From an uncultured Acidobacteriota bacterium (GTDB lineage Bacteria; Acidobacteriota; Thermoanaerobaculia; Gp7-AA8), in contig CAVTGG010000017.1 in the NCBI GenBank assembly GCA_963734155.1, positions 131,705-195,704 on the forward strand: DNA of 64,000 nt, in the 5' to 3' direction. Each line of letters starts with the position of its first letter. The first letter of the stretch is position 1. Made by a program: the position numbers and the translations under genes. The notes under the pieces were generated by a model. The model made no database searches. It worked only from the letters and a program-made list of their open reading frames with translations, and had not been told where the DNA came from. Positions 6,767 through 45,259 of the stretch are shown one piece after another.

Positions 6767-7813
6767 CTAAAATCCGTTCGGGTTGTCCCAGGCCTCTTTC
6801 AGCTTGTTGAGCACGTCCGTGTTCCATGGCTCCGCCGGCGGATAGGTCTGCTTCGCGGCGTAGTGAAGACCGTTGCGGAACGCGGCGGCGGCATACGCGC
6901 GGATGTCGGTTGCGGTCGCGGCTCCCTTGAGGCCGTCGTCGTTGATGATGAGCGGCGCGGACGGGTTGTACCCCGCGGCGCGCGACTTGGCGAAGGCAAT
7001 GCCGGCGGCGACGGCGCCCGGCGTCAGCCACTGGCCCGAATGAAAGTCGAAGAACTCGACCGGCAGCGCAGGCGAGGGACAGTTGTCCGCCGCCTGCCGC
7101 TTGAAGAAGAATCGCTCGCTCTGCGTCACGATGCCGCTGCTCGTGCCGATGTACACCGGCGCGCCCTGCGCCGAGCGCACGATCTCTCCGCGCATTGCGT
7201 TCAGCCACGTCACGAGCTGGCAGTTGTCCACATTGTCTGCAGGCTGATTTTTGACTCGCAGCTCGTTCGCCACTTCCCACAACACGTTCTTGAAACGGCG
7301 CAGACGGTCCACGACCAGGCGGACCAGGCGAACCTGTTCCTGAAATCGGCCGGCATCGGCGGCATTGAAGAACAGACGGACGTTTCCCGGCGCATCGGAC
7401 GGCAGAGTCGGCGGCAGCGTCGGCTCGGGCAATCCGAACACCGTCGGCGAGTTCTCCGGCTGCTCGCCGGCGGCGACCGAGTGGTAGCTGAAGAGGCATA
7501 CCTGTACCCAGAATCCGAACTGGCCCGCCTGATCGACAGTGTTGATGAGATTGTCGATGTAGGCCGTGTTGATGGCGCGTTGCGGTGTATAGAGCGACAG
7601 CCGCCGCACCGCAGGGAGGCCTTCAATTGCCGAATTGCGGAAAAGGATCAGCTTCACCAGATTGACCGGGTATCCGCTGTCGCGCAGATACTTGAAATAG
7701 ATCGGGCCGGCGCCGCTGGCCGGTTTCCCCATGTATCGATCATTGGCGAGGTTATAAGCGCCGTAGCCGAGAAGTCGTGCTGGTATTGGCATGATGGATT
7801 GACACCATACCAT
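6767..7813 (-). CDS. Glycoside hydrolase, clan GH-A TIM-barrel type (GH5/GH26-like)
   Basis: WEVANEL acid/base motif typical of clan GH-A. No obvious signal peptide, and the start is uncertain. Confidence 0.5.
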   Translation of the reverse strand: MVWCQSIMPIPARLLGYGAYNLANDRYMGKPASGAGPIYFKYLRDSGYPVNLVKLILFRNSAIEGLPAVRRLSLYTPQRAINTAYIDNLINTVDQAGQFGFWVQVCLFSYHSVAAGEQPENSPTVFGLPEPTLPPTLPSDAPGNVRLFFNAADAGRFQEQVRLVRLVVDRLRRFKNVLWEVANELRVKNQPADNVDNCQLVTWLNAMRGEIVRSAQGAPVYIGTSSGIVTQSERFFFKRQAADNCPSPALPVEFFDFHSGQWLTPGAVAAGIAFAKSRAAGYNPSAPLIINDDGLKGAATATDIRAYAAAAFRNGLHYAAKQTYPPAEPWNTDVLNKLKEAWDNPNGF

Positions 7814-7913
7814 AATTAAAACTTCTACAGTGTCCTGCTCGCCATGAGCCGTTATTGGGGAACACCGCTTGCAGATAGTGGTGATGTCCGGAAGCGGACA
7901 AATAGGAGGCTAC

Positions 7914-8666
7914 ATGGCAAAAGATAAAGGGCTCGATCCGACGCCCGATAGTAATCCCGATCCAATCACTGGTGAGCCTGGTGCGCACCCTGTAGGCGTT
8001 GCCGGTGGTGGAACCGGAGGTGCGTTGGCGGGCGCGGCGATTGGCGGCGCTGTCGGCGGGCCGATCGGTGCGGCCATCGGCGGAGCAGTCGGCGCGGTTG
8101 CTGGCGGATATGCCGGGAAGGGCGTCGCAGAGACGGTCAATCCGACGGAAGAAAACGCATACTGGCAGCGCGAGCACAAAGCGCGGCCGTACGTACGGAA
8201 AGACACTCCCTACGAGCACTATGAGCCGGCGTATCGGTATGGTTGGGAGACTGCCTCGCGTCCGGAGTTCGCGAATCGCAGCTTCAACGATGCCGAGCGC
8301 GACCTCGAGCGCAACTGGGAGACCTACCGAGGTCCTTCGACCACACCGTGGCGCGACGTTCGCGAGGCGACGAAGGATTCGTTCGAACGCGTCCGCAGCG
8401 GAACCTGGCGCACGGGAGCGGCGGCGAAGAACACCGCCGACTACGCCGGCGACAAGGCCGAATCGGTTTGGGAGCAGATCAAGGGCAACTGGCATCAGGC
8501 CAAGGGCAGTGTGAAGGCGAAGTGGAACGATCTGACCGATGACGATCTCGATCAGATGGCCGGAGAAAAAGAACGGATCGTCGGCAAGATTCAGGAGCGG
8601 TACGGGGAAGCGAAGTGGAAACAGGCGGACATTGAGAACGAGCTTCGCTCGATCTCGCGTCGCTGA
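7914..8666 (+). CDS. csbD: CsbD-family general stress protein with a glycine-zipper N-terminal region
   Basis: AGGAGG RBS 4 nt upstream of ATG 7914. The C-terminus KGNWHQAKGSVKAKWNDLTDDDLDQMAGEKERIVGKIQERYG matches the CsbD domain. The N-terminus has a GGAVGGPIGAAIGGAVG glycine zipper. Confidence 0.8.
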   Translation: MAKDKGLDPTPDSNPDPITGEPGAHPVGVAGGGTGGALAGAAIGGAVGGPIGAAIGGAVGAVAGGYAGKGVAETVNPTEENAYWQREHKARPYVRKDTPYEHYEPAYRYGWETASRPEFANRSFNDAERDLERNWETYRGPSTTPWRDVREATKDSFERVRSGTWRTGAAAKNTADYAGDKAESVWEQIKGNWHQAKGSVKAKWNDLTDDDLDQMAGEKERIVGKIQERYGEAKWKQADIENELRSISRR

Positions 8667-8712: not shown

Positions 8713-11043
8713 TTAGAGCTTCTCCACGACCTCGCCTAACACGTACGAGTCATACTCGCCGTCGCGATACGGGCCGAACGCCAAAGTCGGGTTCGCGGCC
8801 TTCGACGACAGGCGCTCGTACATCTCGCGCACTAGTTCCTTTTTCACCTCCAGCGCCTCGGGCGAGAGCTCGCCGCGGAGCGAGAAGAGACGCTGGAAAT
8901 CGCCGCGCGGAAGTTTCAGCGGGCGGCGGACGTCATCGGAGCGCGGGTCCCATTCTCCGATCAGCACTTCGTCCTCGAGATCGTTCGAGCTCGTCTTCAC
9001 GCAGATCACGATCTCGCTGCCGATCAGCCGCTCGCGCGTCGTCGTCGGATGCGGATCGAATGCGCGCGCCGGCTCTTCTTCGTTGTGCAGCTCCTGACGC
9101 AGCAGCATGAACAGCGATTCCGGCACCTCCAGCGGCGTCACTTCGTCCGCGTCGCCTGCCGCGAACGGGACCATTTCGCCGACTTCGATGCGATCGAGTC
9201 CCTTGAGCGAAACGCTGCCGAGGAGGCGGATGCCGAGCATTTCGACCTCGGAGACGCCCGGCGCGAAGGCGATGAACGTTCCGAACGAAGTCTTCACCCT
9301 GTAGAGTTGCTGCGCCTCCGACGACAGCTCGTTCGACAGCTCCTGCACGAACGGCGCGGAGGCGACGATGCCTTCGTTGACGAGGTGTCCGTTCGCATCG
9401 AGGTACGCGTAAAACTCGCGCGCCTGCTGCGTGTGATCGATGACGTCCGCGCCGCGCAGCGGTGCGAAGAACTGCTGCACCTTCGTCTGGTCGTAGCCGT
9501 GCTGGATGAGGAACGACGCGATCTCGTCGATCTCCTTGTTCGACTTTCCCGTCGTCAGGCGCGACAGCTCGACGATGCCGGGTCCGTAGAACTCGGTGAT
9601 CACTTCGTTCGCATCGGATGCGCTTCTCATCGGCAGCAGCCGGTAGTAGCCGTAATTGAGCGCGATGCGCAGCCCCTTGTTGAACGCGAATCCCTTGCGC
9701 TTCATCTCGGAGTAGTAGCGCTGGATCTCGATCGCCGCGCGCACGAGGCGTAACGCGCGGCGCGTGGTGTAGAACGCGCCGTCGCCGAGGAACTTCTCGA
9801 ATTGCAGGAGGTGCCGCTGCGCGATGCCGTCGAGCTTGCGCTGGAAGACGAGCATCTGCCGGTACGAGCGGATCTCTTCCTTCCCGCCGCCGCGGCGGAT
9901 CTGGCCGAGGGTCTCGGAGAAGGCGGAGATGTCGTAGATCATCCCGAAGCGATGGATCATCGGATCGACGACGCCCGGCCGTCCGAAATCCATCGGCCGC
10001 GTGGAGCGCGAGAACGACGTCGCACCGCGGCGATCGGCGGAGACGACCTCGCCATCGGGAAGCGTGTTCGTCCAGACGATGCCGCGGCGCAGCTGATTGA
10101 GCACCGCGAACTCGCGCACGCGTCGCGCGATCAATTGGAACTGCTCGCGCTCTTCACGCGTGACCGCGTTCTGTGCCGCGGGATGATCGAAGAGAAAGTT
10201 TTCGAATCGCGGATCGAGCAGCAGCGCGAGCGTGATTCCCTGCTCGGGATTCGAGCCGAAGAGCGGCAGCGCCGCGCGGAACACCCGCTCGCGTTGCACG
10301 AGATCGTTCGCCGTCGTGCGCAGTCGTTCGTAGGAATCGCGGAAGGCCTGGAAATCGCGGCGCAGATATCCGTTGAGAAACGAGCGCAGCTCGCGCAGAT
10401 CGGGTCCGATGAATTCCTCGGTGAGGATCAGGACGTCGTCCTGCAGCAGACGGAAGAACTGCAGGCCGCGCTGCTCTTCGCCTTCGAGCAGATTTCCCGC
10501 TTTCGCCGAAAGCTCGGTCATCTGCTGCCGCGTCTCGCTGACCCAGCGGCCGAAGATGCGGTACTTCAACGTGTCGCCGAGGGAGCGGCCCACTTGCGTG
10601 TCGGCGGCGCTCACGCGGCGAGGGAGTCCGCTGAAATGGCGCGCGAGATCGAATGAATGTGCGAGCCAGAAAATCGCGTGATAGTCGCTCAGCAGATTCG
10701 ACATCATCGCGTTCTCGGCGGCCTTCATCAGCGACCCGACGTAGATGTTGAACGCCATCGCCGCCTTGTCTTTCGCATCCGTGGCCCGCGTGACCTGGAA
10801 CGCCGTCTCCTCGGTGAGCCAGCGGTCGAGCTTCGACTCCAGGTCTTTCAGCAGCAGCGTCTCCGAGACCGGATAGCCGAACGACGGCTGCTGCGTCTCG
10901 TCCGCCGGATAGATGCGCAGCGGCTGCGGCAGCAGCATCTCCGGCTGCGCGAACAGCTCCCGCAGCCCGCGCTCGAGGTCCATCGGCAGCAGGAACGTCG
11001 CTGCGTCGGGGCGCTGTTGGAGATAGGTGACGAGGGATTTCAT
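8713..11043 (-). CDS. Large cytoplasmic protein with a central class-III nucleotidyl cyclase (CHD)-like domain (probably divergent or degenerate)
   Basis: GMIYDISAFSET (FxDIxGFT-like metal Asp), KFLGDGAFYTT (second Asp), and LRIALNYGYY...FYGPGIVELSRL in place of the IRIGIHTG...WGDTVNLASR motif, so the catalytic Asn is replaced by Glu. About 340 aa at the N-terminus and about 220 aa at the C-terminus have no recognisable domains. Confidence 0.7.
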   Translation of the reverse strand: MKSLVTYLQQRPDAATFLLPMDLERGLRELFAQPEMLLPQPLRIYPADETQQPSFGYPVSETLLLKDLESKLDRWLTEETAFQVTRATDAKDKAAMAFNIYVGSLMKAAENAMMSNLLSDYHAIFWLAHSFDLARHFSGLPRRVSAADTQVGRSLGDTLKYRIFGRWVSETRQQMTELSAKAGNLLEGEEQRGLQFFRLLQDDVLILTEEFIGPDLRELRSFLNGYLRRDFQAFRDSYERLRTTANDLVQRERVFRAALPLFGSNPEQGITLALLLDPRFENFLFDHPAAQNAVTREEREQFQLIARRVREFAVLNQLRRGIVWTNTLPDGEVVSADRRGATSFSRSTRPMDFGRPGVVDPMIHRFGMIYDISAFSETLGQIRRGGGKEEIRSYRQMLVFQRKLDGIAQRHLLQFEKFLGDGAFYTTRRALRLVRAAIEIQRYYSEMKRKGFAFNKGLRIALNYGYYRLLPMRSASDANEVITEFYGPGIVELSRLTTGKSNKEIDEIASFLIQHGYDQTKVQQFFAPLRGADVIDHTQQAREFYAYLDANGHLVNEGIVASAPFVQELSNELSSEAQQLYRVKTSFGTFIAFAPGVSEVEMLGIRLLGSVSLKGLDRIEVGEMVPFAAGDADEVTPLEVPESLFMLLRQELHNEEEPARAFDPHPTTTRERLIGSEIVICVKTSSNDLEDEVLIGEWDPRSDDVRRPLKLPRGDFQRLFSLRGELSPEALEVKKELVREMYERLSSKAANPTLAFGPYRDGEYDSYVLGEVVEKL

Positions 11044-11071
11044 CGCGGAGGAGGCGAGTATAAAGAATGAC

Positions 11072-11160
11072 GGCAGGAGAACGCAGAACGCAGAACGCAG
11101 AATGGAGAACGAAGAAATTTCTCAATTCTCCGTTCTGCGTTCTGCGCTCTGCGTTCTGTC
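11072..11160. repeat. Long GCAGAAC-heptamer palindrome in the divergent intergenic region
   Basis: gcaggagaacgcagaacgcagaacgcagaatggagaa ... ttctccgttctgcgttctgcgctctgcgttctg. The stem is about 35 bp. Confidence 0.7.
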
Positions 11161-11175
11161 TTAAACTCTCCCACG

Positions 11176-11898
11176 ATGCGTCCCGTTCCCCTCCCATCCG
11201 CCGCCTGTCCCCGCTGCAACGGCTCGGGATGGGTGCCGCTGCCGGGCGATTCGCTGCGCGTCGAGCCGTGCGGATGTCAGGGCGATTTGCGGCGGCAGCA
11301 GCGGATTGGCAGCGCGAGTATTCCGAAGCGCTACGCGCACTGCACACTCGACACGTTCCGAGAGAAATCGACCGTGCTGCGCAACGCGAAGCGGCGCGTG
11401 CAGGAGTTCGTCGACCTCTGGCCGAACACGCCCGAAGGAAAAGGGCTGCTGCTGATGGGCGGCTGCGGCGCGGGCAAGACGCACCTCGCCGTCGCCGCGC
11501 TGCTCGAGATCATTCACAACGGCAAGCCGGGGCGGATGCTGTTCTCGAACTTTCAGGACCTCATCCAGGAAATCCAGGCCTCGTTCGACTCCGATCAGGT
11601 GCCGAGCAAATCGGAGCTTCTGCGCCCGTTGCTCGAAGCCGACCTGCTCGTGCTCGACGAGCTCGGATCGCAGAAGCCGACGAACTTCGTGCAGGACGTC
11701 CTCTATTACGTGATCAACACGCGCTACAACTCGGAGTTGGCGACGATCTTCACCACGAACTACTACGACCGCACCGGCGAGGCGAAGGAAGAGACGCTCG
11801 AGCAGCGGATCGGCACGCGGCTGCGCAGCCGGCTCGCGGAGATGGCCGAGCGGCTCGAGTTCACCGGCGCGACGGACCATCGGCGGAACACGCTGTGA
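11176..11898 (+). CDS. DnaC/DnaI/IstB-family AAA+ ATPase with an N-terminal zinc ribbon (putative helicase-loader-like)
   Basis: CPRCNGSGW...CGC zinc ribbon. Walker A GGCGAGKTHLAVA. Walker B LLVLDELG. Confidence 0.8.
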   Translation: MRPVPLPSAACPRCNGSGWVPLPGDSLRVEPCGCQGDLRRQQRIGSASIPKRYAHCTLDTFREKSTVLRNAKRRVQEFVDLWPNTPEGKGLLLMGGCGAGKTHLAVAALLEIIHNGKPGRMLFSNFQDLIQEIQASFDSDQVPSKSELLRPLLEADLLVLDELGSQKPTNFVQDVLYYVINTRYNSELATIFTTNYYDRTGEAKEETLEQRIGTRLRSRLAEMAERLEFTGATDHRRNTL

Positions 11899-12842
11899 AA
11901 CGCGGCATCTTCGACACGCTGCGCCGCGGGGCCGAGAACACGATCGCGAACTGGCCGCTGTCGGCCATCCGCCTCGCCGAGATGTTCGTGTTCGTCATCG
12001 CCACGATCGTCGCGGTCTTCGCGATGCTCGTGCCGATCCTGGTCTCGATCGGCATCCGCCTCGCCGAGCTCTCGACGCCGGATCGGGTCGAGTCGGCGAT
12101 CACGACGTTGCTCGAGAAATGGACGCTCTTTCTCTGGTTCGGCATCGGCCTCACCGTGATGATGTTCGTGTTCGTGCTCGTGCACGCGTACGTCGAAGCA
12201 GGCTGCGCGCGCGTGCTCGTCGATGCCGATCGCGCCGCGGGGCCGGTGGTCGTCGGACCGCGGCAGCGCTATCGCATCTTCACGATGGATCGCTGGCTCG
12301 CCGGCGCGAAGGAAGGCGGCTGGCGCGTCTTCTGGATTTACAACGGCGCCTGGGCGCTGGCCGCATTGCTTCTTCTGATTCCGCTGATTCCCGTTGCGGT
12401 GCTGATGTTCGTGTTCCAGGAGAACCCTGCCGTCGCCGCGGGCGTCGGCTGTCTTGGATTGTTGATCTTCATGCTGTTCGCGATGGTCGTCGGGATCACC
12501 ACTGGGATGTGGACGAACCGCGCGATCGCCGACTGGGCCGCGCATCGCAGCAGCGCGCGCACGGCCCTCGCCACCGGCTGGCGCGCGGTGAAGACCGACT
12601 TCGGCCGGCACATCCTCATCGCGCTCGCGGTGATCGTCATCGCCATGGCGGCGTCGTCGATCGCGAGCAGCCTTTCGATGATGGGAGGGTTCGGCAGTTC
12701 CTTCCGACACGATGCGAGCTTCAGCTTCGTCATGATTCCGCTGCAGTTGATCGGCTCGCTGCTCAGCTTCGCGATCTCCGCGTTCATCGGCAATTGGTAT
12801 CTCGCGTCGTATGCGGCGCTGGCGGTGGAGAGCAAGCCCTGA
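11895..12842 (+). CDS. Hypothetical polytopic membrane protein, translationally coupled (GTGA) to the DnaC-like ATPase
   Basis: GTG start overlaps the upstream stop. About 6 hydrophobic helices and no recognisable domain. Confidence 0.65.
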   Translation: MKRGIFDTLRRGAENTIANWPLSAIRLAEMFVFVIATIVAVFAMLVPILVSIGIRLAELSTPDRVESAITTLLEKWTLFLWFGIGLTVMMFVFVLVHAYVEAGCARVLVDADRAAGPVVVGPRQRYRIFTMDRWLAGAKEGGWRVFWIYNGAWALAALLLLIPLIPVAVLMFVFQENPAVAAGVGCLGLLIFMLFAMVVGITTGMWTNRAIADWAAHRSSARTALATGWRAVKTDFGRHILIALAVIVIAMAASSIASSLSMMGGFGSSFRHDASFSFVMIPLQLIGSLLSFAISAFIGNWYLASYAALAVESKP

Positions 12843-14132
12843 GCGCCTACGGCGCCTTCTTCTCCCGCGACGCGCGCGCGTTCCGCCCGTCCGCCATCCG
12901 CGCATTCGCAAAGCTGATCAACGACCCGGGCGTGATCTCGTTCGCCGGCGGCTCGCCGAACCCCGAGACATTTCCCGCCGAGCGGATCGCCGCAATCGCG
13001 GAGCAGGTCGTGCGCGAGCGTCGCACGGTGGCGCTGCAGTACGGACCGACGCGCGGCTTGCCGCGGCTCTGTTCGTTCATCGCGGATTTGTGCAACGCGC
13101 GGTTCGGCGGCGAGACGCCGCCGGGCCAGCCGGCGGGGACGCCGGCGTTCCGAAGCAACGCCGGCGCAACGCCTCGGAACGCCGGCGTCTCGCCGGCTGG
13201 TCAGGCGGCGTCTCGCCGCCTCACTCCGGATGACGTGCTGACGACGACCGGCTCGCAGCAGGCGCTCGATCTCATCGCCCACACGCTGCTCGATCCCGGC
13301 GACGTCGTCGCCGTGGAGTTGCCGACGTACATCGGCGGCTCGTCGTCGTTCTTCGCGCGCAGCGCGGAGCTCGTCGGCGTGCAGCAGGACGACGAAGGAA
13401 TCGTCCCCGAGTCGCTGCGCGAAGTCGCGTCGCAAGCATCGCGTGAAGCTGCTCTACACGATCCCGAATTTTCAGAACCCGTCGGGACGCCTGATGACGC
13501 AGGCGCGCCGCGACGAAGTGCTCGCGATCGCCGAGGAGCGCGACTTTCTGATCATCGAAGACGACCCGTACGGCGAGCTGGTGTACGTCGACGGCGCCGA
13601 CACCACTCCGATGAAATCGCGCGATGTGCATGAGCGCGTTTTGTATCTCGGCTCCTTTTCCAAAGTGCTCGCGCCCGGCCTGCGCTGCGGCTGGATCGTC
13701 GCGGCGAAGCCGCTCCTCGAGCGGCTGGAGATCGCGAAGCAGGCCGCCGATCTCTGCTCCGGCATGCTCGATCAGTCGATCGTCGACGAGTTCTGCAGCA
13801 GCGGCGAGCTCGCGCCGCAGATCGAGCGCGTCCGCGCGTTCTATCGCGGCAAGCGCGGCACGCTCATCGACGCGCTGCAGCAGCACTTCGCCGGCCGCGC
13901 CGAATGGACATCCGCCGATGGCGGCCTCTTCACCTTCGTCACGCTGCACGACGACATCGACACCGCGGCGCGCGTGCCAGATGCGGTCGCGCGCGGCGTC
14001 GCGTACATTCCGGGCGGGCCGTTCTTCGTCGATGGAAGCGGGCGCAACACGATGCGGCTCACGTTTGCGAAGGAATCTGACGAACGGATGCGAGAAGGCG
14101 TGGCGCGGTTGGCGGGCGTGTTCTATTCTTAG
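12839..14132 (+). CDS. PLP-dependent aminotransferase class I/II (2-aminoadipate/aromatic aminotransferase-like). It carries an in-frame palindromic element insertion and an apparent frameshift near 13431-13440
   Basis: N-terminal FFSRDARAFRPSAIRAF...GGSPNPETFP, then TGSQQALDL, KLLYTIPNFQNPSG and SFSKVLAPGLRCGWI. The N-terminal half is in frame 2 and the C-terminal half in frame 0. No canonical start codon was found near 12839. Confidence 0.7.
13108..13220. mobile_element. Palindromic MITE/RPE-like element (family 1), inserted in-frame into the aminotransferase CDS
   Basis: Near-perfect palindrome cggaacgccggcgtctcgccggctggtcaggcggcgtctcgcc with its inverse. It adds about 36 aa (ETPPGQPAGTPAFRSNAGATPRNAGVSPAGQAASRR) between the conserved ARFGG and LTPDDVLTTTGSQQAL. 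A second copy lies at 20026-20125. Confidence 0.75.
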
Positions 14133-14764: not shown

Positions 14765-14842
14765 GCGGTTGCGCGGTTACGCGGTTACGCGGTTGCGCAG
14801 CGGGTTCTGCCGCGCGACCGCGCAACCGCGCAACGCGCAACC
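14765..14842. repeat. Heptamer-unit palindrome (GCGGTTA/GCGGTTG units)
   Basis: gcggttgcgcggttacgcggttacgcggttgcgc ... gcgcaaccgcgcaacgcgcaacc. Confidence 0.7.
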
Positions 14843-35188: not shown

Positions 35189-35443
35189 ATGCACATGACC
35201 AAAGACCAGGTCACCGCGCTGGCGCAGAAGCGCAGCTGTCCGCGCTGTGACTACGATAAAACGGTCGGGAACGCCCTGTGCCGCCGCTGCCGGAGCAAGC
35301 TTCCGCAGCACATGCGCTCCGGAGTCGAGAACATCCCGTCGAAGGACAGCTGGCTCGTCGGCCGCGCCCTTCGCGCCGCCGCGAACTACTTCGACGTGCA
35401 CTTCCAGTCGATCCGAAATTTTGGCGGCGGACGGAAAAGGTGA
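35189..35443 (+). CDS. Hypothetical small zinc-ribbon protein
   Basis: CPRCDYD...CRRC. The start is uncertain (35168, 35189 or 35195). Confidence 0.4.
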   Translation: MHMTKDQVTALAQKRSCPRCDYDKTVGNALCRRCRSKLPQHMRSGVENIPSKDSWLVGRALRAAANYFDVHFQSIRNFGGGRKR

Positions 35444-35445
35444 TA

Positions 35446-35512
35446 GGTGTTAGGGGATAGGGGTTTGGGGTTAGGAGTTACTTAACCCCAACCCCCTATC
35501 TCCTAACCCCTA
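35446..35512. repeat. G-rich/C-rich heptamer palindrome (TTAGGGG-like units) with G-quadruplex potential; terminator between convergent genes
   Basis: gttaggggataggggtttggggttaggag tta ctt aaccccaaccccctatctcctaacccctacc. Confidence 0.7.
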
Positions 35513-36976
35513 CCTCGTTCCGCCCCCGCTCGACGCCGCCGCCACTTCCGCCAGCTCACGCGCGCGCTCGTCGCGCGGCGCCTGCGATGCGAGCTCCTCG
35601 GCGCGTTTCGCGACATCGGTGCCGCCACGCGAGCCGCCGCGCAGCGACTCGCCCCAGACTGCGCCGAGGGACGCGAGACGGTGGCGGCGGGACGCGGACG
35701 TCCACGGATTCGCGAAGTCGGAGCCGTGCAGCTCACGCACGATCGTGTGCTGCTTGCCGTCCGGCAGCGAGCGGTAGTGCAGGCGAACCGTGGCCACGCG
35801 CTGGCGCGCCTTCAGCGGAGTGCGAAGCTCGAGCGCGTAGAGACCGGTGACTGACGTGTTGTGCAGCAGCGCGCGCTCCGTCGTCAGCGAAGACTGATCG
35901 CCGATCGCCTCGTAGCGCTCGACTGCATCGGAATTGAAATCGATCTCCAGCCGCGCGTCGGTGCCGATCGGCGGAACCGAGCCGCGCTGCGGAACGTCGA
36001 CCATCGCCGTGTCGATCGTCAGGCGGAGAATGCCGCGTTTCCCGTTCGCATCGACCGGCGCGGGTGACGCTTCCGCTTCGAGGCGCACGCCGCGTTTCAC
36101 ACGCCGCGACGGCGCGCCGGCGAAGTAGTTCACGAGCGCTTCCACGTCCGCGCTCGACGGCGAAGGACGCGCGCCGTTCTCGATCGTCGTCCGGATGCGG
36201 CGGAACACCGATGAGTCGACGGAGATCCCGAACACCGATTTCGGCGCGAGGTTCAAGTCATCTGCAAATGCAGGAGGGACCAGCGAACTCGACGCGGCCG
36301 TCTTGCGTCGCAGCATCGGCGCTTCCTCCGTCACGGTGATCGTTGACGGAGGAGGAGGTGCCGCCGCGACCGGTGCCGGCACTTCCGCGGGTGGGGCCAT
36401 CGGCGGTGCATACTCGGCCACCTGTTGCGGCTGGGGAGCGCTCATCACACCACCGACCACGCCGCCCACGGTGCCGCCGGCGACTCCGCCTTCCACACCG
36501 CCTTCGACGCCACGCTCTTCGGCGAGCGCAAACTCCCGGTCCCGCCGCGGGCTCGCCTCATTGCGCGCCAGCTCCGGCGCCATCGCCGCGCGGGGCGGCG
36601 GTGTCGTGGCCTGCACGATGTCGACGCGAACTTCGTCCGCTGCTGCGGCGGGCGCGGACAGACTCGCTGCGGTATCGATCGCGGTCGCCATCGGCTTCGG
36701 AGCCGGCGGCGCGCTCTCCTTCATCGCGGTGATGGCATTCGGCCGGTTTTCAGGAACGAGCATGAACAGCGCGGCGGCGACGGAGATCAGCACGATGATC
36801 GATGCGGCGATGCGCAGATTGAATCCGATCGAGCGCGAGAAACGCGCGCGCTCCGCCTCGACGTCGAGATAGCGGGGAATGTCGCCCTTGATGCGGTCCA
36901 GCAGATCAGCGGGCGGCCGTGGAACGACCGTCAGCGACAGCTTGCGCTGAATCTCTGCTTTTCGTTTCGAAGTCAT
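35510..36976 (-). CDS. Putative anti-sigma factor (single-pass membrane, Pro/Ala/Gly-rich periplasmic region)
   Basis: ATGA overlap with the upstream ECF sigma gene. One TM LRIAASIIVLISVAAALFMLV and GGV repeats. Confidence 0.6.
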   Translation of the reverse strand: MTSKRKAEIQRKLSLTVVPRPPADLLDRIKGDIPRYLDVEAERARFSRSIGFNLRIAASIIVLISVAAALFMLVPENRPNAITAMKESAPPAPKPMATAIDTAASLSAPAAAADEVRVDIVQATTPPPRAAMAPELARNEASPRRDREFALAEERGVEGGVEGGVAGGTVGGVVGGVMSAPQPQQVAEYAPPMAPPAEVPAPVAAAPPPPSTITVTEEAPMLRRKTAASSSLVPPAFADDLNLAPKSVFGISVDSSVFRRIRTTIENGARPSPSSADVEALVNYFAGAPSRRVKRGVRLEAEASPAPVDANGKRGILRLTIDTAMVDVPQRGSVPPIGTDARLEIDFNSDAVERYEAIGDQSSLTTERALLHNTSVTGLYALELRTPLKARQRVATVRLHYRSLPDGKQHTIVRELHGSDFANPWTSASRRHRLASLGAVWGESLRGGSRGGTDVAKRAEELASQAPRDERARELAEVAAASSGGGTR

Positions 36977-38504: not shown

Positions 38505-38590
38505 ACGTGCCCGTGCCCGCGCCCGTGCCCGAGCCCGGGGTGGGGGAACGAACCACCCACCCCGGGCACGGGCGCGGGCACGGGCACGGG
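38505..38590. repeat. Heptamer-unit palindrome (GCCCGTG units) downstream of the DUF1684 gene
   Basis: cgtgcccgtgcccgcgcccgtgcccgagcccggggtggg gaacgaacca cccaccccgggcacgggcgcgggcacgggcacg. The stem is about 38 bp. Confidence 0.75.
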
Positions 38591-38731
38591 AAATACCGCG
38601 GGACAACACTCGTAGACCCAACCCCGGCCCTGTGGACATCATCAACAGTTACGTCCTACGCCACCCTCGTTTTTCCACCGCCCGTAGGTCTGTAAGCCCC
38701 TGGTCGTAACCTCTTCCGCGGAGGTGATGCG

Positions 38732-45178: not shown

Positions 45179-45180
45179 GG

Positions 45181-45259
45181 TAGCGGGCAGGCGAGCTGGC
45201 GGGCAAGCGGGCCGGGCGACTGTCTGCTGCCCGCCTGCTCGCTGGCCCGCTGCCCGCTA
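45181..45259. repeat. Heptamer-unit palindrome (GCGGGCA units)
   Basis: tagcgggcaggcgagctggcgggcaagcgggccgggcg actgt ctgctgcccgcctgctcgctggcccgctgcccgcta. Confidence 0.65.

Follow-up and report, generated by a model that had tools for sequence, protein, structure and literature searches.

We analysed a 64,000-nucleotide stretch of DNA (hereafter referred to as the window) from an uncultured Acidobacteriota bacterium (Thermoanaerobaculia; Gp7-AA8), described as a soil acidobacterium of class Thermoanaerobaculia. The window corresponds to positions 131,705 to 195,704 of the forward strand of contig CAVTGG010000017.1 (assembly GCA_963734155.1). The part studied here (positions 8713 to 12842) carries the gene for a 776-amino-acid (aa) protein, the family of which is hereafter referred to as BIG776. 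Divergent from it lie the genes for an AAA+ ATPase of the DnaC/DnaI type and for a membrane protein, and the intergenic region contains a palindrome built from heptamers (Table 1). A preliminary description of this locus had proposed a cytoplasmic protein with degenerate class III cyclase motifs, next to a DnaC/IstB-family ATPase translationally coupled to a membrane protein with six transmembrane segments. In a hydropathy scan, no hydrophobic segment was found in the 776-aa protein, which is therefore considered soluble, as had been proposed. A verbatim copy of this protein was located on a 517-kb contig.

Table 1. Features of the studied part of the window and of its surroundings, in window coordinates.
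Feature	Position	Strand	Basis or remark
776-aa soluble protein gene (BIG776 family)	8713..11043	-	open reading frame (ORF) list
BIG776 N-terminal helical domain, residues 1 to ~320	10084..11043	-	AlphaFold model
BIG776 predicted class III cyclase homology domain (CHD), residues ~362-627	9163..9960	-	Foldseek, hhalign, conservation
BIG776 helical insertion in CHD, residues ~501-545	9409..9543	-	Foldseek spans, model, hhalign
BIG776 C-terminal alpha/beta domain, residues ~640-776	8716..9126	-	long-form versus short-form members, model
80-nt palindrome of AGAACGC heptamers	11078..11157		within the 132 bp between the divergent genes
Palindrome arms	11078-11117 and 11118-11157		two 40-nt arms, 88% complementarity, no spacer
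DnaC/DnaI-type AAA+ ATPase, 240 aa	11176..11898	+	Pfam, NCBIfam, PDB, PHROG
315-aa membrane protein, six hydrophobic segments	11895..12842	+	hydropathy scan
DinG/XPD-type helicase, 811 aa	4313-6748	-	Helicase_C_2, DEAD_2, HBB
348-aa ORF	6767-7813	-	no family match
CsbD-like gene with glycine-zipper region	7869-8666	+	
Aminotransferase gene	~12839-14132	+	two frames
GC-rich hairpin	13133-13194		
Further repeat-built hairpins (at least five)	1950-2005, 14776-14834, 35437-35519, 38508-38592, 45179-45254		

The 776-aa protein has 1152 homologous clusters, and the best 120 of these, which were the ones listed, had identities to it of 71% or more. Among the matches listed, all names that include a taxon were those of Thermoanaerobaculia or Acidobacteriota. 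An exhaustive profile search of a library clustered at 50% identity recovered 240 BIG776 clusters at E≤1e-3, and a genome scan identified the gene in at least 244 species-representative genomes. The family comprises long-form members of ~770-780 aa, such as that of the window, and short-form members of ~670 aa, which stop near residue 640; the named short-form members likewise come from Thermoanaerobaculia. A tblastn search of plasmid and phage collections yielded no relatives of the big protein. Judging from these distributions, BIG776 appears to be a vertically inherited family restricted to Thermoanaerobaculia. Two members carry the label “class 3 adenylate cyclase” from the Joint Genome Institute (JGI) pipeline, and a literature search retrieved no papers pairing Thermoanaerobaculia with adenylate cyclase. 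PDB sequence and family-profile searches with the 776-aa protein returned only L33 and a torsin-interacting protein, both dismissed as chance matches, and a Pfam scan of 10 distant BIG776 members gave nothing useful. The window protein had no match to the cyclase family PF00211 at E≤0.1 and is therefore not assigned by family profile.

A structural model of the protein, which the preliminary description had suggested as a check, was also built. A first AlphaFold run, using only sequences with at least 71% identity, gave a poor model (predicted local distance difference test score, pLDDT, of 62) that was discarded without a fold search. With an alignment of 86 diverse sequences including short-form relatives (31-37% identity), the model reached a pLDDT of 83.5 and a predicted template modelling score (pTM) of 0.61. 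In a Foldseek search of the PDB with this model, all 50 of the 50 top matches were class III adenylyl or guanylyl cyclases (probability 1.00), with a best E value of 5.6e-6 (CyaB, 3R5G) and target-normalised template modelling (TM) scores of 0.70-0.79. These matches included CyaB, Cya2, Ma1120, Rv1900c, Rv1625c, mammalian adenylyl cyclase (AC) and soluble guanylyl cyclase (GC), and the predicted fold is thus shared with members of PF00211. The significant matches in BFVD were also all of the cyclase type: two named guanylate-cyclase-domain proteins, a COG4252 sensor and a response regulator. The BIG776 alignment was further compared, with hhalign, to a CHD alignment consisting of the C1 and C2 domains of AC5, AC8 and AC9, with sequences taken from PDB alignments. 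The match covered residues 368-515 (probability 73.8%, E 2.9e-5), and a global comparison improved from E 4.4e-5 to E 5.3e-6 (probability 69.8%) after the removal of residues 501-545. The insertion-free global alignment also paired the C-terminal “LKGL” of BIG776 with the “KGKG” hairpin of the cyclases. On the basis of the model and these comparisons, the core of the big protein very probably adopts the CHD fold. Sensitive methods alone support the assignment of this core as a very divergent class III nucleotide-cyclase domain, overlooked by standard domain libraries. The earlier cyclase proposal was therefore right, and it was not an obvious one to make, given that the domain escapes the profile libraries.

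The cyclase motifs quoted in the preliminary description were all located in the protein: FGMIYDISAFSET at residues 366-378, KFLGDGAFYTT at residues 417-427, LRIALNYGYY at residues 458-467 and FYGPGIVELSRL at residues 485-496. Class III cyclases use a two-metal mechanism, with a substrate-specifying Lys/Asp pair and a transition-state Asn/Arg pair (PMC4886424). The hhalign alignment placed D371 at the first metal Asp (“YDISAFS” aligned with “FADIVGFT”), and both K417 and D421, at the substrate Lys and the second metal Asp, respectively, within the pairing of “EKFLGDGAFY” with “IKILGDCYYC”. R459 was aligned with the phosphate Arg (“LRIALNYG” with “MRIGIHSG”), E484 with the substrate Asp of “YDIWG”, R495 with the transition-state Arg, and K614 with the Lys of the C-terminal “KGK” of cyclases. 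An alignment of 41 family sequences (24-67% identity) contained 21 invariant columns, all within residues 370-615, including D371, K417, D421, R459, E492, R495 and K614. E484 was nearly invariant in this alignment and invariant in the 86-sequence alignment. Both metal-binding Asp residues are thus present and invariant at the CHD positions. Of the transition-state pair, the Arg is kept (R495, invariant) and the Asn is lost, so the pair as a whole is not intact. The preliminary description had reported a replacement of this Asn by Glu: the loss was confirmed, but the position of the Glu was off by one, as the Asn column corresponds to V491 (Val, Ile or Ala across the family), immediately followed by the invariant E492. 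The substrate pair K417/E484 is a Lys/Glu combination, differing from the canonical signatures (Lys/Asp for ATP, Glu/Cys for GTP). The strong constraint on the active site across the family speaks in favour of a functional two-metal enzyme and against decay of the domain.

Several comparisons with described cyclases can be made from these positions. As in homodimeric bacterial cyclases, a single chain of BIG776 carries both metal-binding Asp residues, the substrate Lys, the phosphate and transition-state Arg residues and the Lys of the C-terminal “KG” motif. The absence of the Asn is shared with Rv1900c, a cyclase cited in PMC4886424 as active without this residue. Unlike class III cyclases, BIG776 has a Val followed by an invariant Glu at the Asn site, a Glu at the substrate Asp site, an insertion of ~45 aa after the catalytic helix, and N-terminal (~320 aa) and C-terminal (~135 aa) domains of its own; it is undetected by PF00211 and appears confined to one bacterial class. 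A similar residue pattern has been described for DUF2652, a group of CHD-like proteins of Actinobacteria, Bacteroidetes and Proteobacteria predicted to be ACs or GCs (Biol Direct 2016, PMC4886424). The mycobacterial DUF2652 proteins have two Asp metal ligands, a Lys/Glu substrate pair, a retained Arg and an Ile in place of the Asn (PMC4886424). These mycobacterial proteins therefore have the same pattern as BIG776, and both families are recognised by remote homology only, but DUF2652 proteins consist of one domain of ~250 aa and come from other phyla, and the DUF2652 profile matched none of the 41 BIG776 members at E≤10. The likeness is one of analogy, not of membership.

The remaining parts of the protein are less readily compared. 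Residues 1 to ~320 were modelled mostly with a pLDDT >90 and are mostly helical (helices H63-320). No relative of this region was found in Pfam, NCBIfam, PHROGs or PADLOC, and the top 50 PDB matches and the few significant BFVD matches of the whole model were all to cyclase-type proteins; the region is presumed to be a regulatory or sensor domain. Two further parts had been overlooked in the preliminary description. One is the insertion of ~45 aa, located after the “ELSRLTTGK” helix and modelled with helices at 503-514, 519-530 and 537-540. Its location within the CHD is indicated by the length of the Foldseek alignments, 263-298 columns for targets of just 160-200 residues. The other is the C-terminal alpha/beta domain (~135 aa; strands 677-712, helices 713-748, pLDDT ~60-85), which is confined to long-form members and for which no relative was detected in Pfam, NCBIfam, PHROGs, PADLOC or the fold searches (residues ~640-776).

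We then considered the genomic context of the gene. Near-clade synteny was assessed on 80 loci from species-representative genomes, in which the big protein is 59-96% identical to that of the window. The ATPase gene was present at 68 of the 80 loci, the membrane protein gene at 65, a co-directional gene for a DinG-like helicase downstream of the big gene at 59, an aminotransferase gene at 53 and a thymidine kinase gene at 31. Absences mostly reflected short contigs; for the ATPase, most of the 12 contigs concerned were too short on that side. The whole block is thus syntenic among close relatives, as would be expected whether or not the genes cooperate. The big gene, the ATPase gene and the membrane gene are syntenic in just one subclade of Thermoanaerobaculia. 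Two long-form loci with ample flanking sequence lacked the ATPase gene. At one of them (L064), the big gene is adjoined by PheS and pyrroloquinoline quinone (PQQ) dehydrogenase genes, and at the other (L077) it has a flavin adenine dinucleotide (FAD) oxidoreductase gene upstream and a convergent purC downstream. At all five short-form loci examined (L081-L085; ~36-38% identity to the 776-aa protein), the gene is flanked on one side by pepA, a divergent gene for an M17 leucyl aminopeptidase, and on the other by purC (SAICAR synthetase) in the same orientation, and neither the ATPase nor the membrane gene was found within 5-8 kb. At L081, purC overlaps the cyclase-like gene by 4 nt. The position of purC, adjoining the short-form genes and convergent at L077, may point to a link with purine metabolism. 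The big protein keeps its sequence and changes partners, and therefore behaves as the product of a stand-alone gene; judging from these gene orders, it is probably independent of its ATPase and membrane neighbours.

The neighbouring ATPase matched IstB_IS21 (PF01695) in Pfam above the gathering score (E 1.5e-14), and Bac_DnaA (2.3e-7). In NCBIfam, PRK08116 (2.5e-34), DnaI (7.5e-20), IstB (1.8e-17) and DnaC were matched, all below their cut-offs (119 bits for a cut-off of 189, 71 for 228, 64 for 200 and 58 for 357, respectively). The best solved relative was Aquifex aeolicus DnaC (3ECC, E 8.1e-24), with the IstB of IS5376 far behind (1.4e-7), and PHROG 50 (“DnaC-like helicase loader”) was matched at 3.1e-54. 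Its N-terminus carries the four-Cys motif (CxxC...CxC) reported in the preliminary description, C11-x2-C14...C32-x-C34. Among 68 orthologues, 65-68 retain these Cys residues, the Walker A K101, the Walker B D161/E162 and the sensor-1 N195 (66-67 for K101, D161/E162 and N195 alone). No hydrophobic segment was found in the hydropathy scan of the ATPase. The presence of Walker A, Walker B and sensor-1, together with clade similarity, places the protein in the DnaC/DnaI/IstB clade of AAA+ ATPases, as had been proposed, and it is a probable chromosomal DnaC/DnaI-type replicative helicase loader, to judge from its relatives. It shares with the DnaC and DnaI loaders (3ECC; Bacillus/Geobacillus DnaI 4M4W and 2W58) the AAA+ core with these three motifs and, with DnaI, a Cys-rich, presumably zinc-binding segment preceding the ATPase. 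It differs from DnaI in that this segment is just ~40 aa long and in scoring under the NCBIfam DnaC, DnaI and IstB cut-offs, and from both DnaC and DnaI in its coupling to an integral membrane protein. An identity as IstB of an IS21 element was rejected, given the absence of an adjacent transposase, the conserved synteny and the closer similarity to Aquifex DnaC.

The coupling between the ATPase gene and the membrane gene was found as predicted. The GTG start codon (11895-11897) overlaps the TGA stop codon of the ATPase gene (11896-11898) as GTGA (acgctGTGAa at 11890-11899). The membrane gene is directly 3' of the ATPase gene at 65 of 68 loci, and the alignment boundaries coincide as in the window at roughly 30 of these; the overlap is thus probably conserved at many orthologous loci. 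The membrane protein had no match in Pfam, NCBIfam, PADLOC, PHROGs or the PDB. Of its 273 homologous clusters, those named by taxon are all from Thermoanaerobaculia, and precomputed Pfam domains are absent from the whole set. We propose that it is a lineage-specific protein that would be co-translated with the ATPase. The family is fast-evolving, with 30-88% identity at loci at which the ATPase is 61-98% identical. It is unusual for a helicase-loader homologue to be co-translated with an integral membrane protein; to our knowledge, coupling of this kind is not a feature of DnaC or DnaI operons.

The long heptamer palindrome between the divergent genes was also present as described. The heptamer pattern was matched 11 times, whereas chance alone would give 0.13 matches, and the corresponding RNA hairpin has a predicted energy of -59.4 kcal/mol (z = -9.5). 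Consensus scans of the palindrome region identified no promoter and no terminator. At the orthologous intergenic site, the AGAACGC element was found only at L001. Hairpins built from other units were present there at six loci (GTTGTCG-type at L004 and L033, GAATGTT-type at L040, L058 and L066, and another unit at L079), and ~50 loci had no hairpin at this site, with the start codons just 33-44 bp apart in some of them. A role as an operator or terminator was rejected on the grounds that no consensus promoter or terminator was found and that the palindrome is absent from most orthologous intergenic regions. The presence of different heptamers at the same orthologous site in different genomes suggests recurrent local generation or insertion. 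The palindrome is a sporadic copy of a genome-wide class of hairpins in intergenic regions, not a locus-specific regulator. The further hairpins of the window have arms consisting of tandem arrays of a unit of 6-8 nt that varies between sites (AAAGCAG, GCGGTTAC, TAGGGGT, CGTGCC and others). We know of no description of such repeat-built hairpins.

Other genes of the surrounding region were also inspected. The DinG-like helicase gene lies directly downstream of the cyclase-like gene at 59 of the 80 near-clade loci, sometimes overlapping it (L002), and the helicase of the window has an N-terminal extension of ~190 aa with weak Cas4-like (PD-(D/E)xK nuclease) PADLOC matches (E ~4e-3). In the window, the CsbD-like gene and the 348-aa ORF lie between the two. 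This arrangement was found only in the window genome and its closest relative, L001, and therefore looks like a recent insertion. Downstream of the membrane gene, the aminotransferase gene matches intact orthologues (e.g., L010, 403 aa) in two frames, with a switch near 13410-13490 and an extra segment of ~40 aa that coincides with the GC-rich hairpin. It is either a frameshifted pseudogene or an error in the assembly of this metagenome-assembled genome.

Taken together, these observations are best explained by a divergent, lineage-restricted class III cyclase, with the ATPase and membrane protein as neighbours by lineage-specific synteny rather than as parts of one system; we assign this reading a probability of roughly 0.6. 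On the question of catalysis itself, the retained residues tip the balance slightly towards an active enzyme. Two subunits would be arranged head to tail in a homodimer with two active sites; a homodimeric mode is suggested because the metal Asp residues, the substrate Lys, the Glu, the phosphate and transition-state Arg residues and the Lys are all on one chain. Each site would bind a nucleoside triphosphate and two divalent metal ions and catalyse a cyclisation, the most likely reaction being the conversion of ATP or GTP to cyclic AMP (cAMP) or cyclic GMP (cGMP). The N-terminal helical domain would gate this activity. The lost Asn, with an invariant Glu one residue further on, is predicted to alter the positioning of the ribose, which could result in a relaxed or unusual substrate or product specificity.

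Several points weigh against this explanation. The 776-aa protein had no match in Pfam, NCBIfam, PADLOC or PHROGs, and a Pfam scan of the 41 diverse members at E≤10 gave a lone weak match to PF00211, in one member (E 0.21). The hhalign probabilities are just ~70-74%, the CHD fold is called from a predicted model rather than a solved structure, and loops 472-481 and 527-533 of this model are poor. The Asn is absent from every member, such that the domain may be inactive or may catalyse something else, and the insertion sits close to the active-site helix, which may likewise leave the domain inactive or altered. No effector binding cyclic nucleoside monophosphates (cNMPs) was seen nearby. For the neighbours, the ATPase scores below the NCBIfam cut-offs and is not recognised as a DnaC or DnaI equivalog, and its loader role is assigned by homology alone. 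The divergent arrangement of the ATPase gene is kept at 68 of the 80 near-clade loci, making a lineage-specific functional link possible.

The alternative that best withstands the data is that the CHD is a pseudoenzyme or has been re-purposed, binding a nucleotide or another ligand without producing a cyclic nucleotide or performing a different nucleotidyl transfer, with a new active-site geometry provided by the invariant Glu492 and the insertion. The replacement of the Asn in all members by Val, Ile or Ala, followed by the invariant Glu, the 45-aa insertion adjoining the catalytic helix, and a divergence so great that PF00211 misses the family are all consistent with such a protein. The recurrence of nucleotide- and DNA-metabolism genes in its neighbourhood (purC for short-form genes; DinG, the DnaC-like gene and tdk for long-form genes) would fit re-purposing. 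Nevertheless, the two metal-binding Asp residues, the substrate and C-terminal Lys residues and the two Arg residues show no variation among sequences of 24-67% identity, as would be expected of an active two-metal enzyme, whereas at least one of the Asp residues is usually missing from pseudo-cyclases. Cyclases that are active without the Asn are also documented, Rv1900c being the example cited in PMC4886424. We therefore consider a pseudoenzyme or re-purposed domain unlikely, albeit deserving of serious attention.

The preliminary description had raised the possibility of a signalling or conflict module, with unrelated neighbours as the alternative, and had suggested an examination of gene-neighbourhood conservation, with a lack of co-occurrence in related genomes speaking against the module. 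In such a module, the signal produced by the cyclase-like protein would control the ATPase and a membrane effector. The divergent arrangement at 68 of 80 related loci, the ATPase-membrane pair at 65 of 68, the translational coupling of these two genes and the PADLOC matches of the ATPase (DrmD, 3.9e-5; mad8, 1.2e-4) would be compatible with this view. A nucleotide-cyclase-fold protein near a membrane protein is also found in Pycsar and, as a looser analogy, CBASS. However, the near-clade synteny spans the whole block, housekeeping genes included, and the ATPase and membrane genes are missing from the vicinity of the big gene at all five short-form loci and at L064 and L077; the trio is thus conserved among close relatives only, an outcome that the preliminary description had named in advance as speaking against a module. 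The length of the intergenic region ranges from 33 bp to >1 kb, without conservation of the palindrome, and no relatives of the big protein were found in the phage and plasmid collections. The PADLOC matches of the ATPase correspond to weak, generic AAA+ similarity, and the PADLOC defence models, including those for Pycsar and CBASS cyclases, matched neither the big protein nor the membrane protein. No cNMP-binding domain was detected in the ATPase or the membrane protein with Pfam and NCBIfam. Unlike the situation in Pycsar and CBASS, the membrane protein lacks such a domain and is coupled to the ATPase rather than to the cyclase, and the genes lie in a conserved core-genome block rather than a variable island, with their association lost in other clades. 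A single module is accordingly improbable and the alternative of unrelated neighbours is favoured. The cyclase-ATPase-membrane set is a case of synteny, not a system, and should not be taken further as a possible operon for defence or signalling.

A further reading, of similarly low probability, is that BIG776 may be a core enzyme found throughout Thermoanaerobaculia, built on a CHD scaffold in which the Asn has given way to an invariant Glu. It would generate a nucleotide product of a non-canonical kind or sense nucleotide pools, linking purine or DNA metabolism to signalling. Such a link is hinted at by the recurrent placement of the gene near purC in one clade, and near genes for a DnaC-type loader, a DinG-like helicase and a thymidine kinase in another. 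Finally, the idea that the ATPase is an IS21 IstB helper or a phage-derived DnaC and the locus a mobile-element remnant, for which the top Pfam match (IstB_IS21) and the PHROG 50 match might be cited, is very improbable, as no IstA transposase or other phage gene adjoins it, neither inverted repeats nor istA flank it at the related loci examined, its position is conserved in ~68 genomes at 61-98% ATPase identity, it is closer to chromosomal Aquifex DnaC than to the IstB of IS5376, and the G+C content is uniform across the region.

The reading of BIG776 as a divergent class III cyclase has implications for both annotation and physiology. Across life, cAMP and cGMP are made mainly by class III cyclases, the diversity of which goes largely unseen in poorly cultured phyla, with annotation hanging on one Pfam model. 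A family of at least 240 clusters at 50% identity, which keeps nearly all of the catalytic residues and yet is missed by the libraries, constitutes an annotation gap. If active, BIG776 would represent a structurally distinct subclass of cyclases, lacking the Asn and set apart by its inserted subdomain and by a new type of helical domain at the N-terminus, and would be a candidate major source of second messengers in abundant soil Acidobacteriota.

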